Positions 34,374-42,376 of a DNA stretch of 64,000 nucleotides are shown one piece after another. The notes below the pieces were generated by a model. The model was given only the letters and a program-made list of their open reading frames with translations. It was not told where the DNA came from and searched no databases. Each line of letters opens with the position of its first letter. Positions within the stretch are counted from its first letter, which is position 1. Both the position numbers and the translations under genes were made by a program. Source of the DNA: Acidimicrobiia bacterium (lineage in GTDB: Bacteria; Actinomycetota; Acidimicrobiia; Spongiisociales; ZC4RG35); the NCBI GenBank assembly GCA_036555105.1, contig DATBMA010000023.1, positions 3,786 to 67,785 on the forward strand. Direction: 5' to 3'.

Positions 34374-37001
<2,628 letters not shown>

Positions 37002-37011
37002 GCGGGGTCTT

Positions 37012-37416
37012 ATGAGTCGCATCCTCGGAGTCGATCTGGGAGAGACTCGGGTTGGATTGGCGGTCTCCGATCCGGACGGAGTGATTGCCCTGCCGTTGGA
37101 AGTGGTCGAGAGAGGTGGGGCCGTCGGCCGGATCCTCGAGCTGGCGGCGGACCTGGACCTGAGCGAGGTGGTGATCGGACTCCCGGTGTCCCTCTCCGGC
37201 GAAGAGGGAAGGAGCGCGATCCGCAGTCGTGAGTTCGGGGCGGAGGTGGCAGCCGCCAGCGGCCTCCCGGTCCATCTCGTGGACGAGCGGTTCACAACCC
37301 GGATCGCCGATTCGGCACTAAAGGAACAGGGGAAGTCGGCGCGGGCGAGGCGTGGCTCCATCGATAGGGCGGCGGCCACCGTTATCCTCCAATCGTTCCT
37401 CGACCGCGCTCGATGA
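37012..37416 (+). CDS. ruvX: Holliday-junction-resolvase-like putative pre-16S rRNA nuclease YqgF/RuvX
   Basis: MSRILGVDLGETRVGLAVSD N-terminus and RNase H-like fold; ~134 aa. Confidence 0.9.
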   Translation: MSRILGVDLGETRVGLAVSDPDGVIALPLEVVERGGAVGRILELAADLDLSEVVIGLPVSLSGEEGRSAIRSREFGAEVAAASGLPVHLVDERFTTRIADSALKEQGKSARARRGSIDRAAATVILQSFLDRAR

Positions 37417-38495
37417 CACTCACCCCTTCCACTACCCGTGTTCCGCGCTGGCTGCGCGTTCTGGCGGCGGTCGCAGTGACCGCCATCGTCGTCGTGGTCG
37501 GAGCCACCACCCTGGGCAGGATGGTGGCCGACCGGGTGGGCAGCGGTGGCGGTGGCACCAACGTGACGGTGCTGCCCGGACAAGAAGTCGACGTGAGCAT
37601 CCCGCCAGGCTCCAGCGCCCAGGAGATCGCGGCGATCCTCGCCGCGCAGGGGGTGGTTTCGTCTTCGACGGAGTTCGAGCTCGCAGTCCGAGCCTCAGGC
37701 ACCGCCTCTCAGCTGAAGGCCGGCACCTACACACTGCTCACCGGCATGCAACCCGGCGAAGTGGTGACCCTGCTGGTCAGGGGTCCCGTCGCCGAGACGT
37801 ATCGCATCACTGTCCGCGAGGGGCTCCGAGTGTCGGAGATGCTCGATGTCCTCTCCGAGGCTTCGGGCATCCCGGTCGCTGAACTCGAGGACGCACTCAC
37901 CAATGGCACCGTCACGACGTCACTCCGCCAGATGCCGGCCACACCGGCGGTGGCCGATTGGGAAGGGCTCCTCTTCCCAGACACCTACGAGTTCCTGCGC
38001 ACGGCCACCGCCACCCAGATCTTGCAGAGGCTGGCCGAGACCATGGAGTCGAGAGTCGCCGCCATCGACTGGGCCCGCTTCCAGCAGGCCGGCTTCAACA
38101 AGTATCAGGGCATAGTCATCGCCTCGATGATCGAGTCGGAGGTGAGGGTGCCATCGGAGCGCCCCCTGGTCTCGAGCGTCATCCGAAACCGCCTTGACCA
38201 GGAGATGCCGCTCCAAATCGACGCCACCGTCCTCTATGCACTGGGGACACGGGACATCGCGGAGTTCGACAGCGACTTCGACTCGCCCTTCAACACCTAC
38301 AAAGTCGCCGGCTTGCCACCGGCGCCTATCTCCGCCCCCGGCCGGGCCTCCCTCGAAGCCGCGGCATCGCCGGCGGCGAGCGATTACCTCTTCTACGTCC
38401 TGTCGGCCGCCGATGGGAGCCACACCTTCACCACCAACTACGCCGACCATCAGCAGGCCGTCGCCCAAGCCAAGGCCGACGGAATCATCCCCTGA
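37413..38495 (+). CDS. mltG: endolytic murein transglycosylase MltG (YceG-like)
   Basis: N-terminal TM, LysM-like region and a YceG domain (LLFPDTYEF, ...SMIESE); ATGA overlap with ruvX. Confidence 0.9.
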   Translation: MTLTPSTTRVPRWLRVLAAVAVTAIVVVVGATTLGRMVADRVGSGGGGTNVTVLPGQEVDVSIPPGSSAQEIAAILAAQGVVSSSTEFELAVRASGTASQLKAGTYTLLTGMQPGEVVTLLVRGPVAETYRITVREGLRVSEMLDVLSEASGIPVAELEDALTNGTVTTSLRQMPATPAVADWEGLLFPDTYEFLRTATATQILQRLAETMESRVAAIDWARFQQAGFNKYQGIVIASMIESEVRVPSERPLVSSVIRNRLDQEMPLQIDATVLYALGTRDIAEFDSDFDSPFNTYKVAGLPPAPISAPGRASLEAAASPAASDYLFYVLSAADGSHTFTTNYADHQQAVAQAKADGIIP

Positions 38496-39277
38496 CCATC
38501 CGGCTGCTCCTGGTCGGCGATCCGGTAGATCACTCCCTCTCGCCGATCATCCATCGGGCTGCGATGGAGCTCACCGGGCTGGATGGGGAGTACACCAAGC
38601 AGCGGGCCGACGCCGAAGTGCTGGGGCAGGCAATCAGCCGGCTGCGGGCGGGAGAGCTCGATGGCATCAACGTGACGATGCCGCTCAAGCGGGCCGCCGC
38701 CGGGTTGTGTGACCGGCTCGACCCCCAAGCTCAGCGCACCGGCTCGGTCAACACCATCGTGCGAGTAGGAGATCGGGCGATCGGGCACGACACCGACGTG
38801 ATCGCACTCAAGCTGGCGCTGGAGGAGATGCCCGAGACCGCTCCGCTGCTGATCCTCGGAGCGGGCGGTGCTGCATCGAGCGCGGCCGTGGCCGCTGGTA
38901 GTCGCCCCACCTACGTGGCCGGACGCCGCCCTGGCGCCCTGCAGGCACTGGCTGAGGCCGCCAATCAAGCGGCGGCCGAGGTGCCTTGGGGGGTGCCGGT
39001 GGTAGGGGCGGTTGTGGTCAACGCCACCCCATTGGGAATGGCGGGGGAGGCGCTTCCACCGGGGTTGTTGGCCGTGGCCGGCGGGCTGGTCGACCTCGTC
39101 TATGGGCCGAAGGTGACCCCGGCAGTGGAAATGGCCGCTGACCTGGGAATTCCCGCGGTGGACGGCCTGAGTCACCTGGTCAGGCAGGCGGCCGCCGGAT
39201 TTCAGCTGTGGACCTCCCGGGCCGGGGTCGAGCAAGCCATGATGGAGGCCGCGAAAAGAACTCAAGAGGTTGGTTGA
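38492..39277 (+). CDS. aroE: shikimate dehydrogenase (start codon unresolved; CTG proposed)
   Basis: Essential substrate-binding motif LLLVGDPVDHSLSPIIHRAAMELTGL lies upstream of the first in-frame ATG (38564); no ATG/GTG/TTG between it and the upstream stop; CTG 38492 overlaps the mltG TGA (CTGA). Confidence 0.75.
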   Translation: MTIRLLLVGDPVDHSLSPIIHRAAMELTGLDGEYTKQRADAEVLGQAISRLRAGELDGINVTMPLKRAAAGLCDRLDPQAQRTGSVNTIVRVGDRAIGHDTDVIALKLALEEMPETAPLLILGAGGAASSAAVAAGSRPTYVAGRRPGALQALAEAANQAAAEVPWGVPVVGAVVVNATPLGMAGEALPPGLLAVAGGLVDLVYGPKVTPAVEMAADLGIPAVDGLSHLVRQAAAGFQLWTSRAGVEQAMMEAAKRTQEVG

Positions 39278-39320
39278 AAGGGCCGAAGCTCATTTCGAAC
39301 CTGGCACAAGGAGCTTGCCC

Positions 39321-40412
39321 ATGTCCCTGACCGGGCATCTTGATGTTTTTGCTCTCGAGGAGGTGCTTCGCCTCCTGGCGCGTTCGTACAAGACCGGCTG
39401 CCTGCGGGTGGACGCCGGCGAGGTGCACGGACGCGTCTACCTGTCCTCCGGGACGATCTCGTTCATCACAGCTGGAACAGACGACGATCTGAGGCGCCAA
39501 CTGCTTCGCGCGGGCGTGGCGGACGACGAGAGCCTCCGGGCAATGGAGCGGGGCTCGAGCTGGAGTGATCCCAGCACGACCCGCAGCCAGGGGCTCAGCA
39601 ACTTCGTCAGGGAAGAAGTCGTCGAGAGCCTCTACCGGATCCGCCGCCCCGGACGCGGCCAATTCGTCTTCAATGCCGACGTCGCGCCCCGCTACCCGAT
39701 AGGGCAGAGCTTCGACGTGGAGATGACGATCGCGGACGCCGACCGTCGGGCTGCCGACTGGGCAGACATCGAGGCAATCCTGCCTTCGGTGGAGCTTCCG
39801 ATTCGCATCGTGACTGATGTCGAGGGCGACATCACCGTCTCCCCCTTCGCCTGGAAGCTGATCTCCGCCATGGGCGGCATCGCCACCCCGGCCGGGCTCG
39901 CCGACGGCATGGGCCTCAGCCGATTCGTAGTGGCACGCGAGGTTGCCGATCTGATGCACCGCTCGCTGCTCGAACCTGCCGTGCAGACGGCCGAGCATGA
40001 GCATGAACCTGAGCGGGAGCCCGAGGCCGAGGCCGAGCCTTACTCTTACGAGACCTTCGCCCCGGCAGCCACCGCGGACACGGCCTTGCAGGAGACCTAC
40101 GGCGACGAGCCGATCGCGGACACCGCACCGGCCTTCGAGGAGTCAAACCAGGCCGAGGAGACCCAGGCCCCGGCGGCAGGTGTCGACGGTGGTTGGTGGG
40201 TCGAGCCGGACCGCCCAAGTGGTCAGGCGGCCGACGAGAGCGCACCCGAAGGCCAGGGCGAGGGCACCCCGCTGGCCGATGGCTTCCTCGAGAGGGTCTT
40301 CGCCCAGCTCGAGGAGACCGACGCCGAAGGCACCGCCGAGCAGCCCAGCATCGGACACGGGTTCCTCAAGCGGCGCCGGATGAGCTCGCTCACTCCAGAA
40401 GACCTCACCTGA
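39321..40412 (+). CDS. DUF4388-domain protein with long acidic low-complexity C-terminal tail
   Basis: N-terminal LTGHLDVFALEEVLRLLARSYKTGCLRVDAGEVHGRVYLSSGTISF matches DUF4388/PATAN-like; C-terminal half is highly acidic (HEHEPEREPEAEAEP...); AAGGAGC RBS before ATG 39321. Confidence 0.6.
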   Translation: MSLTGHLDVFALEEVLRLLARSYKTGCLRVDAGEVHGRVYLSSGTISFITAGTDDDLRRQLLRAGVADDESLRAMERGSSWSDPSTTRSQGLSNFVREEVVESLYRIRRPGRGQFVFNADVAPRYPIGQSFDVEMTIADADRRAADWADIEAILPSVELPIRIVTDVEGDITVSPFAWKLISAMGGIATPAGLADGMGLSRFVVAREVADLMHRSLLEPAVQTAEHEHEPEREPEAEAEPYSYETFAPAATADTALQETYGDEPIADTAPAFEESNQAEETQAPAAGVDGGWWVEPDRPSGQAADESAPEGQGEGTPLADGFLERVFAQLEETDAEGTAEQPSIGHGFLKRRRMSSLTPEDLT

Positions 40413-40489
40413 CGCCCGCCGGGCCGGGCTCTCGATCCTTCAGCGAGGTCATTGGCCGCCGATAGGCGGACCGATAAGGTCGACGGCAG

Positions 40490-41215
40490 TTGCAGACGGC
40501 GCTTCTCACCATCGCCGGGCTCCTGCTCGGGCCCTGGTTGCACACGCTTGCAATCCAGGCCGGAGCCGACCTCCCATTTCGCCTCAACGCTGCCCATTGC
40601 CGGGTCTGCGACCAGCCGGTGTCGACCTTCGACCTCCGCTGCTCCAGTTGCGGGCGCACCCGCTGGCGGGAGTGGCTGACCGGGCTGGTGGCGGCGGCAG
40701 GATTCGCCGCCATGAGCTGGCGGTTCGGCACCGATCCGGTGTTACCCGCCTATGTCTGGCTGGTTGGCACCGGGGTGGTGCTGATCCTCACGGACTTCGA
40801 TCACTTTCGCATCCCCAACCGCATCCTCTATCCGGCCACCTTGGTGTCGGTCGTGCTGCTTGCCACCAGCGCCTTGCCCACCGGCCGTGCCCCTGACCTG
40901 CTGCGGGGAATGCTGGCCGGGCTCGCCTACGGCTTGTTCTATTTCCTCGTATTCCTCCTGGCGCGGGGGCGGGGGTTGGGCTTCGGGGACGTGAAGCTGG
41001 CCGTGATGCTGGGGCTTTACGCCGGATTCCAGTCGTGGCCGACGTTGGTCCTCGCCCTCTTCGCCACCGCCATCATCGGGGGGGCGGCAGCCATCATCCT
41101 GCTCGGACTGGGCCGGGGCCGAAAGGCCGAGCTGCCCTATGGACCGCCGCTCATCATGGGAACTTGGCTTGCGATCGTGCTGGGCCCGACGTTCCTCTCT
41201 TGGTACCTGGGCTGA
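40490..41215 (+). CDS. prepilin (type IV leader) peptidase, A24 family
   Basis: N-terminal Cys-rich zinc region (CRVCDQP...CSSCG), polytopic TM, and a GFGDVKL-containing aspartyl protease core; TTG start. Confidence 0.8.
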   Translation: MQTALLTIAGLLLGPWLHTLAIQAGADLPFRLNAAHCRVCDQPVSTFDLRCSSCGRTRWREWLTGLVAAAGFAAMSWRFGTDPVLPAYVWLVGTGVVLILTDFDHFRIPNRILYPATLVSVVLLATSALPTGRAPDLLRGMLAGLAYGLFYFLVFLLARGRGLGFGDVKLAVMLGLYAGFQSWPTLVLALFATAIIGGAAAIILLGLGRGRKAELPYGPPLIMGTWLAIVLGPTFLSWYLG

Positions 41216-41233: not shown

Positions 41234-42376
41234 GTGATGCGGTTCCTGACCGCGGGCGAGTCGCACGGTCCCGCCCTGGTCACAATCGTCGAGGGTCTGC
41301 CGGCCGGCCTCTCGTTCAGCAGCGAGGCGCTGGCCGGCGAGCTGGCGCGCCGCCGCCTGGGGTTCGGCCGAGGAGCCCGGATGCGGATCGAGCAGGACGA
41401 GCTAGAGGTCCTCGGAGGTATCAGGCACGGTCGCACCCTGGGCAGCCCCGTATCGGTGCTGATTCGCAACACCGAGTGGGCTCGCTGGTCGCAGGAGATG
41501 GCGGCCGAAGGCGAGCCTGCCGGAATTGCGCTCACCAAGCCCCGACCGGGCCACGCCGATTTGGCGGGGATGCAGAAGTACGACACCACCGACGCCCGCA
41601 ACATCCTCGAACGCGCCTCGGCCAGAGAGACCGCCGCCAGAACCGTGGCCGGGTACCTGGCGAAGTGCCTACTGGACTCGATCGGAATCTCGATCGTCTC
41701 CCACGTGGTGTCGATCGGGAGTGCCCGGGTCGATGACGAGGCAGATCCTCCTGGCCCGGGTGACCTGGACCGGGTGGACGCGTCTTCTGTGCGTTGTTTC
41801 CACCCGGAGGCAGAGCGGGCGATGGTGGAGGCAATCGAGGAGGCCAACAGAGCCGGGGACACCCTCGGCGGCGTGGTGGAGGTCCTCGCCTATTCGGTCC
41901 CGCCGGGGCTCGGCAGCCACGTCCATTGGGACCGGCGGCTCGACAGCCTGTTGGCGGCTGCTCTGATGTCGATTCCCGCCATCAAGGCGGTTGAGGTGGG
42001 GGACGGCTTGGCCTCCGCCTCCCGGCTCGGATCGGCGGCCCACGACGAGATCCTGACCGACCTGACTCGCGCTACCAATCGCGCGGGTGGGATCGAGGGT
42101 GGGATGTCGATCGGTGGGACGGTGCGCCTGCGTGCCGCGATGAAGCCGCTTTCAACGCTGCGCAAGGGCCTTGGCACGGTCGATGTCGCCACCGGGGAGC
42201 CTGCTCAGGCGTTCTTCGAACGCTCGGACGTTTGCGCTGTGCCGGCAGCCGGAGTCGTAGCGGAGCAGATGACGGCGCTGGTGCTGGCTTCCGAGGCCCA
42301 GCGAATGTTCGGAGGCGACACCGTCGACGACTTCATGGCCGCCCACGCGGCCTATCTGCGTCGCCTGGAGCGATGA
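41234..42376 (+). CDS. aroC: chorismate synthase
   Basis: (M)MRFLTAGESHGPALV and GRGARMRIEQD...RPGHAD motifs. Confidence 0.95.
   Translation: MMRFLTAGESHGPALVTIVEGLPAGLSFSSEALAGELARRRLGFGRGARMRIEQDELEVLGGIRHGRTLGSPVSVLIRNTEWARWSQEMAAEGEPAGIALTKPRPGHADLAGMQKYDTTDARNILERASARETAARTVAGYLAKCLLDSIGISIVSHVVSIGSARVDDEADPPGPGDLDRVDASSVRCFHPEAERAMVEAIEEANRAGDTLGGVVEVLAYSVPPGLGSHVHWDRRLDSLLAAALMSIPAIKAVEVGDGLASASRLGSAAHDEILTDLTRATNRAGGIEGGMSIGGTVRLRAAMKPLSTLRKGLGTVDVATGEPAQAFFERSDVCAVPAAGVVAEQMTALVLASEAQRMFGGDTVDDFMAAHAAYLRRLER

Follow-up and report, generated by a model that had tools for sequence, protein, structure and literature searches.

Why should a prepilin peptidase gene sit inside an aromatic-biosynthesis operon, and what is the acidic-tailed protein encoded directly in front of it? 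The question is raised by a 64,000-nucleotide (nt) stretch of DNA from an Acidimicrobiia bacterium (GenBank assembly GCA_036555105.1, contig DATBMA010000023.1, positions 3,786 to 67,785 of the forward strand), here called the window. A gene for a 363-amino-acid (aa) protein of the PATAN family (39321-40412, ATG start, stop codon included) is followed there by a gene for an A24 prepilin peptidase, with aroE upstream and aroC, aroK and aroB downstream. All features of the window given below are on the + strand. The initial annotation took this arrangement as a sign that pilin processing is coupled to aromatic biosynthesis. The answer proposed here is a different one. The PATAN and peptidase genes are probably all that is left here of a type IV pilus operon, which related Acidimicrobiia keep whole at this chromosomal position.

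The evidence comes from four lineages, basal or sister to that of the window, in which this slot is taken up by a full type IVa pilus operon headed by the PATAN gene (loci L008, L047, L052 and L053, the last seen as far as its contig reaches). L008 was found via a relative of the peptidase, P0200 ("bacterium BMS3Bbin01"). Its gene order begins with alaS, ruvX, mltG, PATAN (317 aa), PilB (MshEN and T2SSE domains), a second MshEN-T2SSE ATPase and PilC (T2SSF). Two N_methyl pilins, PilD (A24_N_bact and Peptidase_A24), PilM, PilN, PilO and a 167-aa open reading frame (ORF) come next, and aroC, aroK, aroB, efp, nusB, pyrR, pyrB and pyrC complete the series. The Pfam content of these operons is MshEN plus T2SSE twice, T2SSF, N_methyl pilins, A24_N_bact plus Peptidase_A24, PilM_2, PilN and PilO. 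L047 belongs to Acidimicrobiia bacterium UBA4744, and there aroE precedes the PATAN gene. In the full operons the PATAN gene abuts or overlaps pilB (a gap of 11 nt in L008 and of about 8 nt in L047, a 4-nt overlap in L052) and lies five genes away from pilD. The initial annotation had linked the gene to a pilin or pseudopilin system, and its place at the head of these operons supports this.

Two further observations concern the operons themselves. Two consecutive PilB-like ATPases, each with MshEN and T2SSE, are found at L008:5967-7499, L052:12662-14197 and L053:12796-14367, and no PilT-type retraction ATPase is recognisable within the pilus-operon loci. The other is the order pilM-pilN-pilO-(ORF of 164-167 aa)-aroC-aroK-aroB, seen at L008:10973-16413, L047:17004-20661 and L052:17708-20924. 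The linkage of pil genes with aroK and aroB may be very old.

By sequence comparison, the PATAN and peptidase genes of the window are orthologous to the PATAN gene and pilD of the operons. The reasons are that the PATAN proteins of the window and L008 match with E=7e-40 over residues 1-261, that the window peptidase is 40-41% identical to PilD of L008 and L047 and has the C-terminal SWYLG in common with them, and that the PATAN tails carry related motifs (see below). The flanks are also common to the window and the operon loci, with mltG or aroE upstream and aroC downstream. The window locus is no type IVa pilus cluster, as the defining genes are absent, and it is best described as derived from one.

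How stable is the reduced arrangement? The PATAN protein has 217 homologues, almost all of which span 98-100% of the query at 35-50% identity; those that are named come from metagenome-assembled genomes (MAGs) of Acidimicrobiia or Actinomycetota. A genome scan with the protein, restricted to one genome per species and with flanks annotated by tblastn, gave 42 loci, all from MAGs labelled Acidimicrobiia, Actinomycetota or "bacterium". The sequence extends past the PATAN gene in 36 of them. The order alaS-ruvX-mltG-aroE-PATAN-A24-aroC-(aroK)-aroB is found in 35 of these 36, and the 36th is the complete pilus operon of L047. PATAN-A24-aroC is also the order in L001-L003, L005, L006, L055 and L056, and aroE-PATAN-A24-aroC is fixed in all informative loci of the window's clade that were examined (about 40). 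Approached from the other side, starting with peptidase relatives of 39-44% identity, the PATAN gene is upstream in five of five loci (L005, L006, L008, L055 and L056). Absence of the gene from close relatives that retain the peptidase would have pointed to a sporadic insertion, the possibility raised in the initial annotation. No such absence was seen in the five loci, and the PATAN gene is a stable, lineage-wide neighbour of the peptidase. In a more distant locus, L054, where the PATAN protein is 31% identical, a three-gene ABC transporter separates the PATAN and A24 peptidase genes. The synteny sample that bears on the phrase "conserved actinobacterial", which the initial annotation had used of the coupling, covers Acidimicrobiia and one more distant lineage.

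Was the pilus operon lost from the window's lineage, or was it gained by the others? Simple distance trees (neighbour-joining) were built for MltG, with the root on L054, and for AlaS, with the root at the midpoint. All reduced-locus lineages fall into one clade there, and the four full-operon lineages are sister to it or make up a basal grade beside it. A single loss at the base of that clade would account for this pattern. Reduction is favoured because the full operon hangs together as a functional unit, with pilD as part of it, and because the order of pilMNO followed by aroK and aroB is common to Acidimicrobiia and Proteobacteria. We therefore infer that the direction of evolution was reduction.

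This origin also bears on the supposed coupling to aromatic biosynthesis. Since a full pilus operon occupies the same slot, and since aroE is missing from some of the loci, the placement is better explained as inherited synteny of a pilus operon upstream of aroC-aroK-aroB, and the coupling is left unsupported. The loci in which aroE is absent between mltG and the PATAN gene are L005, L006, L008 and L052, which include both the reduced and the full-operon type, so the position of aroE here is itself variable.

The PATAN protein is a genuine member of the family to which the initial annotation assigned it. Residues 4-148 match Pfam PF14332 (DUF4388, now PatA_N) at E=8.5e-14 with a score of 52.1 bits, above the curated cut-off of 25, and all of the profile is covered (positions 1-122 of 122). 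The length first given for the domain, about 110 aa, was too short, and about 150 aa is more accurate. An AlphaFold2 (AF2) model built on 82 homologues is confident for residues 1-220, with a predicted local distance difference test (pLDDT) score mostly above 90, and low beyond that. It includes a confident PATAN domain at residues 1-153 (39321-39779; pLDDT 92-98 with one block at 81), the structure prediction that had been suggested for the N-terminal region. The predicted order of strands (E) and helices (H) is E3-6, H12-21, E26-32, E35-42, E45-50, H54-64, H69-76, H86-108, E114-119 and H133-153. Helices 54-64 and 69-76 form a two-helix insertion of the alpha-clip type (residues 54-76, 39480-39548) between strand 45-50 and helix 86-108, with pLDDT above 90. 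Published work describes a helical insertion of this kind for PATAN domains as well as for the N1 domain of PilB/GspE ATPases (10.1101/2021.06.11.447907). Pfam detects no homology of the window protein's insertion to MshEN or GspE_N. The domain is highly conserved, with 26 invariant columns in the 82 sequences.

A winged-helix domain follows (residues ~155-220, 39783-39980), its fold resembling those of MarR, ArsR and Lrp. This part matches no family in Pfam or NCBIfam, and NCBIfam has no match for the PATAN protein or the peptidase as a whole. A profile search against the PDB matched the winged helix alone, at a marginal E=0.0055. A receiver (REC) domain is not found, with no match to Response_reg at E<=0.1. 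The window protein is therefore, on its domain content, a PATAN/DUF4388 family member and not a PatA-type response regulator.

The third part is an acidic, disordered tail (residues 221-363, 39981-40409), in which pLDDT is 44-61 except in the block holding a predicted helix at residues 321-332. Because the PATAN and winged-helix domains fill residues 1-220, the tail is about 143 aa long and not about 200 aa as had been estimated. It is strongly acidic, with 32 D/E against 7 K/R in residues 228-363 and a net charge of -25. The E/D/P/A-rich repeats first noted in it come down to two hexanucleotide runs of 21-22 nt, encoding HEHEPEREPEAEAEP, in the output of Tandem Repeats Finder, which rules out a tandem-repeat reading of the tail.

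Three short motifs stand out from this variable background. The sole predicted helix of the tail is an amphipathic one, FLERVFAQL (residues 321-332, 40281-40316, block pLDDT 77), and its pattern FLxRVFxQL is present in 79 of 82 homologues, with V326 and F327 invariant and F322, L323, Q329 and L330 at least 90% conserved. Near the C-terminus is a basic motif, GFLKRRRM (residues 347-354, 40359-40382), whose pattern is found in 80 of 82 homologues, one variant being GLLRRRRMG; L349 and R351 are invariant, and G347, R352, R353 and M354 are at least 90% conserved. Both have counterparts in the PATAN proteins of pilus operons, LLRSALSDIV, LLRDALSEVV and LLQSVLSGF for the helix and GLRRRRTLG, SRRRGLG and GRRRGLG for the basic motif. 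The third, a WW motif (W292-W293 within GGWWVEP, 40194-40199), is present in 78 of 82 homologues and absent from the operon-linked versions. Among homologues the tail can be as short as 89 aa or as long as about 380 aa, with the motifs always at the end, and operon-linked tails are shorter, about 100 aa. Free variation in length with motifs kept at the end indicates that the reading frame is maintained and that the C-terminal peptides are under selection.

The longest tails deserve a brief description. Extra genes had seemed possible in the 0.7-1.2 kb gaps between the PATAN and peptidase genes of L028, L032, L037-L041 and L043, but these gaps are filled by longer tails, on proteins of up to 594 aa. 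L045, whose assembly is error-prone, probably owes its gap to a frameshift. PATAN proteins of 549-594 aa with acidic tails of up to about 380 aa are encoded at L032:7785-9434, L037:10001-11737, L038:10001-11785, L039:10001-11674 and L041:10001-11698. They carry additional recurring Trp motifs, TPW..SPW(S/T)A(E/D), SPWGG and SWWSD, ahead of GGWW, FLESVF and GLLRRRRMG, and the tail in L032 also has a short EEAVT tandem repeat.

The peptidase next door (40490-41215, TTG start, 241 aa) is of the PilD type. It matches PF01478 (Peptidase_A24) with E=2e-13 and 51 bits against a cut-off of 26.5. Both catalytic-Asp motifs are in place. In the peptidase alignment (A3), T101, D102, D104, H105, I108, N110 and R111 of the first motif, TDFDHFRIPNR (T101-R111, 40790-40822), are invariant, as are G164, G166, D167, V168 and L170 of the second, GFGDVKL (G164-L170, 40979-40999). 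Compared with the operon PilDs, the N-terminal cytoplasmic segment with its Cys cluster (CRVC...CSSC, 40598-40651) lacks about 11 aa. It still has four Cys, of which C37, C40 and C51 are nearly invariant in A3. Pfam A24_N_bact (PF06750; also DiS_P_DiS), a domain linked in PilD to N-methyltransferase activity and present in the operon PilDs, is undetected. In some reduced-locus lineages the cluster is partly or wholly lost (P0165, P0183 and P0190 in A3; P0165 has none). Loss of the Cys cluster beside invariant Asp motifs is consistent with relaxed constraint on the N-terminal, methyltransferase-associated segment.

What might the PATAN protein do? One clue comes from Synechocystis, where the PATAN domain of PixE alone binds the N-terminal domains of PilB1 and PilC, is membrane-localised and switches pilus-driven phototaxis (10.1101/2021.06.11.447907). 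PATAN proteins also occur fused to GspE_N domains, and the authors suggest a conserved association of PATAN with the ATPases of type II secretion and type IV pili (10.1101/2021.06.11.447907). In Myxococcus xanthus, PATAN proteins are among the uncharacterised candidate regulators of type IVa pili (10.1101/2024.03.11.584430). The position at the head of the operon, combined with the known binding of PATAN to PilB and PilC, leads us to an explanation that we hold to be somewhat more likely than not: the window protein is the orthologue of a pilus-operon first gene and acts as a motor adaptor or regulator, the locus has been reduced, and the partners are encoded elsewhere.

In this scheme the window protein would be cytoplasmic and built of three parts, a PATAN domain with a two-helix insertion, a winged helix, and a variable acidic linker with two C-terminal peptides. 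By analogy with cyanobacteria, the PATAN domain might dock on the N-terminal region of a PilB-type ATPase, on the cytoplasmic domain of PilC, or on both. The acidic linker could serve as a flexible tether that brings the C-terminal peptides within reach of a second partner or of the membrane, with the amphipathic helix and the basic peptide as second attachment points to either. The protein would thus sit at the cytoplasmic base of a pilus or pseudopilus machine as its adaptor or regulator, and the prepilins of that machine would be matured by the neighbouring peptidase. In the reduced clade the motor, pilin and alignment genes would have gone from the locus while PATAN and the PilD-type peptidase stayed, and the two proteins kept in the window organism, the peptidase still catalytically intact, would serve pilus- or pseudopilus-type genes elsewhere in the genome. 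Both these other pilus genes and the binding partners are inferred.

Several observations do not fit this explanation comfortably. A tblastn search of the 64-kb window with the L008 pilus proteins found no pilB, pilC, pilM or pilin gene, and in no reduced locus does one of these genes lie within 10 kb of the PATAN gene. A motif search of the window for ORFs with a class III signal peptide was negative, and the Flp-type prepilin motif (G/xxxxEY) of Tad/Flp pili does not occur in any frame. The peptidase has its Cys-rich N-terminal segment shortened, and this segment is degenerate in some relatives. The longer tails and the WW motif set the reduced clade apart from the operon-linked versions and could be a sign of changed function. 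As for the history, the one outgroup-like locus, L054, is also of the reduced type, and the direction of change is not proven: pilus genes may instead have been gained in one clade. Finally, a sequence search of the PDB found no solved PATAN domain, which leaves no fold for comparison, and Foldseek against the PDB gave nothing significant.

Perhaps the pilus is gone altogether. A large Acidimicrobiia clade could have lost the type IVa pilus and kept PATAN and the PilD-type peptidase under selection as a pilus-independent module, in which the peptidase matures non-pilin membrane or secreted proteins and the PATAN protein, its tail expanded and bearing a WW motif specific to the clade, organises this maturation at the membrane or links it to the cell-envelope and division machinery. 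This scenario is rather unlikely.

What if the PATAN protein alone took on a new role after pilus loss? It would then serve a pilus-independent housekeeping function in the envelope, division or polarity, co-expressed with mltG and essential genes, and its acidic linker and C-terminal peptides would be a tether like the linker and C-terminal peptide of FtsZ. The gene does have strongly conserved housekeeping genes around it (alaS-ruvX-mltG-aroE...efp-nusB), the tails of the reduced clade are expanded and carry a new WW motif, and in cyanobacteria the PATAN protein PatA binds ZipN and SepF, both of the divisome (PMC7380572). The conservation of the PATAN domain described above also means that some partner persists. 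However, a peptidase with an intact active site is always kept alongside, which argues that pilin-type substrates still exist. Moreover, the helix and RRR motifs predate the reduction, and any envelope or division partner is hypothetical. Such a role is rather unlikely.

A third idea, close to one in the initial annotation, is that the peptidase or its substrates have in the PATAN protein a partner of their own (a regulator, scaffold or chaperone), the two genes forming a self-sufficient processing module. Only these two pilus-operon genes have been retained, they are adjacent in every reduced locus, and both are conserved, the one in its tail motifs and the other in its catalytic aspartates. 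Nevertheless, the full operons place the PATAN gene against or overlapping pilB and not beside pilD, three ABC-transporter genes lie between the two in L054, and the experimentally known partners of PATAN are PilB and PilC, not PilD. In addition, the 77-nt gap between the two genes of the window shows neither coupling nor notable structure, its hairpin being no better than that of shuffled sequence (z=-0.33). The suggestion of a regulator or chaperone of the peptidase's substrate system is upheld as far as the link to pili and the stable partnership go. A partnership devoted to the peptidase is less likely than one with PilB or PilC, and we regard it as quite doubtful. Least credible of all, and very unlikely, is a DNA-binding transcription factor that controls the locus or pilus genes via its winged helix, with PATAN as sensory or interaction domain: the fold resembles MarR, ArsR and Lrp and some homologues are labelled "Lrp family transcriptional regulator" by the Joint Genome Institute, but the winged helix is not basic (median net charge 0 over the 82 homologues, -3 in the window protein), the protein as a whole is strongly acidic, no conserved operator was seen, although no search was aimed at one, the similarity to DNA-binding families is marginal, and the cyanobacterial PATAN regulators are membrane-localised, with their authors arguing against DNA binding (10.1101/2021.06.11.447907).

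If the PATAN protein is a motor adaptor or regulator, how does it compare with characterised systems? The PatA-type PATAN-REC regulators (PixE, PixG, LsiR and PilG of Synechocystis; PatA of Anabaena) have in common with it an N-terminal PF14332 domain that includes a helical insertion, and both are tied, genomically and functionally, to the type IV pilus machine. Unlike them, the window protein has no REC domain, and so no phosphorylation input; what follows its PATAN domain is a winged helix and then a long, disordered acidic tail with conserved C-terminal peptides. In addition, it comes from Actinomycetota, where the gene heads a pilus operon rather than sitting in a chemotaxis-like one. The stand-alone PATAN proteins of M. 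xanthus (SgnC, 10.1101/2021.06.11.447907; MXAN_3211 and MXAN_4965, 10.1101/2024.03.11.584430) also lack REC and are linked to type IVa pilus-dependent motility. However, they are associated with MglA/MglB modules, and no such genes are near the window locus. The initial annotation had stated that the DUF4388 fold is often partnered with small GTPase or Roadblock modules. No small GTPase or Roadblock (MglA/MglB) gene adjoins the PATAN gene here, whose neighbours in the window are aroE and the A24 peptidase, and the called genes of related loci contain no Ras-like or Roadblock Pfam matches.

The peptidase resembles the bifunctional PilD/XcpA-type prepilin peptidases (MEROPS A24A) in its Peptidase_A24 domain and its DxDHxRIPN and GxGDVK motifs, and it differs from them in the shorter Cys-rich segment, the undetected A24_N_bact and the lack of a pilin gene nearby. 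As for gene order, pilMNOPQ is flanked by aroK and aroB in Proteobacteria (PMC7545093; PMC5542475), where pilus alignment genes lie directly upstream of shikimate genes just as they do in L008, L047 and L052. In contrast to the proteobacterial cluster, the Acidimicrobiia operon is of a monoderm type without secretin, and the window keeps just pilD and the PATAN gene.

The window protein also belongs to a much wider family. A profile search of 1.84 billion representative proteins gave 158 clusters at E<=1e-30, 2601 at E<=1e-10 and 5716 at E<=1e-3. Distant members follow the same plan of PATAN, winged helix and disordered tail and end in other short C-terminal peptides, for example ...NRGLLLKFLSSV and ...KGLLLRLIDGVKG. 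Further such peptides, from the distant proteins P0335-P0404, are ...INRGLLLKFLSSV(R/K)N, ...VNKGLLLRLIDGVKGA, ...LDKSLILRLIAGV(R/K)SL and ...ELARRWRNLR. Their variety points to several sub-families, each perhaps using a docking peptide of its own. PATAN, winged helix, linker and C-terminal peptide thus appear to make up a general, uncharacterised architecture of which the window branch is one variant, and the searches made here found no characterised member of this wider family. What sets the window branch apart within it is the FLxxVFxxL and GLLRRRRMG/GFLKRRRMS peptides and the fixed place beside pilD.

This matters because experiments on PATAN proteins have so far been carried out almost only in cyanobacteria, where they are outputs of chemotaxis-like systems acting on PilB and PilC. 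What is new here is a PATAN protein lacking a receiver domain that is encoded first in a type IVa pilus operon of Actinomycetota and whose gene, in a large clade, is kept with pilD alone. Type IVa pili are little studied in Actinomycetota, and in one lineage PATAN there overlaps pilB translationally. This is independent genomic support for PATAN as a general partner of pilus motors, and it offers simple material for tests, namely one operon, one PATAN gene and defined C-terminal peptides. A prepilin peptidase inside a shikimate operon would also be explained, as a probable relic of a pilus operon. Lastly, about 150 clusters (50% identity) of proteins listed as "DUF4388 domain-containing" or "hypothetical" gain a functional context.

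The remaining observations concern the immediate surroundings of the PATAN gene in the window. As first described, it has its own ribosome-binding site, AAGGAG at 39308-39313, read directly from the sequence 7 nt before the ATG. The start is at ATG 39321, as homologues begin with the same MSLTG, and this common start rules out a TTG at 39270. Pfam confirms the location first reported, between aroE and an A24 prepilin peptidase and co-oriented with aroC, aroK and aroB. The block to which they belong runs from alaS (34374-37001) through ruvX, mltG/YceG (37413-38495), aroE, the PATAN gene and the peptidase to aroC (41234-42376; chorismate synthase, Pfam Chorismate_synt E=1e-111), and then on through aroK, aroB, efp, nusB, pyrR, pyrB and pyrC. 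A promoter scan returned no promoters, and terminator-like sites were all inside genes. Rfam and tRNA scans of the 64-kb window gave no family above threshold and no tRNA gene.

The upstream neighbour aroE (38492-39277; shikimate dehydrogenase, Pfam Shikimate_dh_N and SDH_C) has an unusual beginning. In the region 38492-38566 of the window, no ATG, GTG or TTG precedes its conserved substrate-binding motif LLLVGDPVDHSLSP. The first canonical start of this open frame, at 38564, is downstream of the GDPVDHSLSP motif. Translation is likely to start at the CTG at 38492, which overlaps the mltG stop as CTGA; an ATC at 38498 is an alternative.

An A24 peptidase is presumably also encoded between aroE and aroC in Actinomycetes such as Mycobacterium and Streptomyces, an assumption of ours that was not used as evidence. 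A literature search for Rv2551c with "prepilin peptidase" found nothing. In L054 the transporter genes (L054:3762-6390) encode SBP_bac_11, BPD_transp_1 and ABC_tran plus TOBE domains, and aroC-aroK-aroB is followed by aroQ and an M24 peptidase gene before efp. As for the rest of the window, the ORF translations, judged by eye, make the whole of it (1-64000) a dense housekeeping block. Genes tentatively identified in this way are thrS, pdxS/pdxT, ruvA/B, queA, tgt, secD/F, apt, relA, hisS, aspS, rarA and alaS, then carA/B and pyrD, and lastly an mIHF-like gene, gmk, coaBC, metK, priA and fmt.

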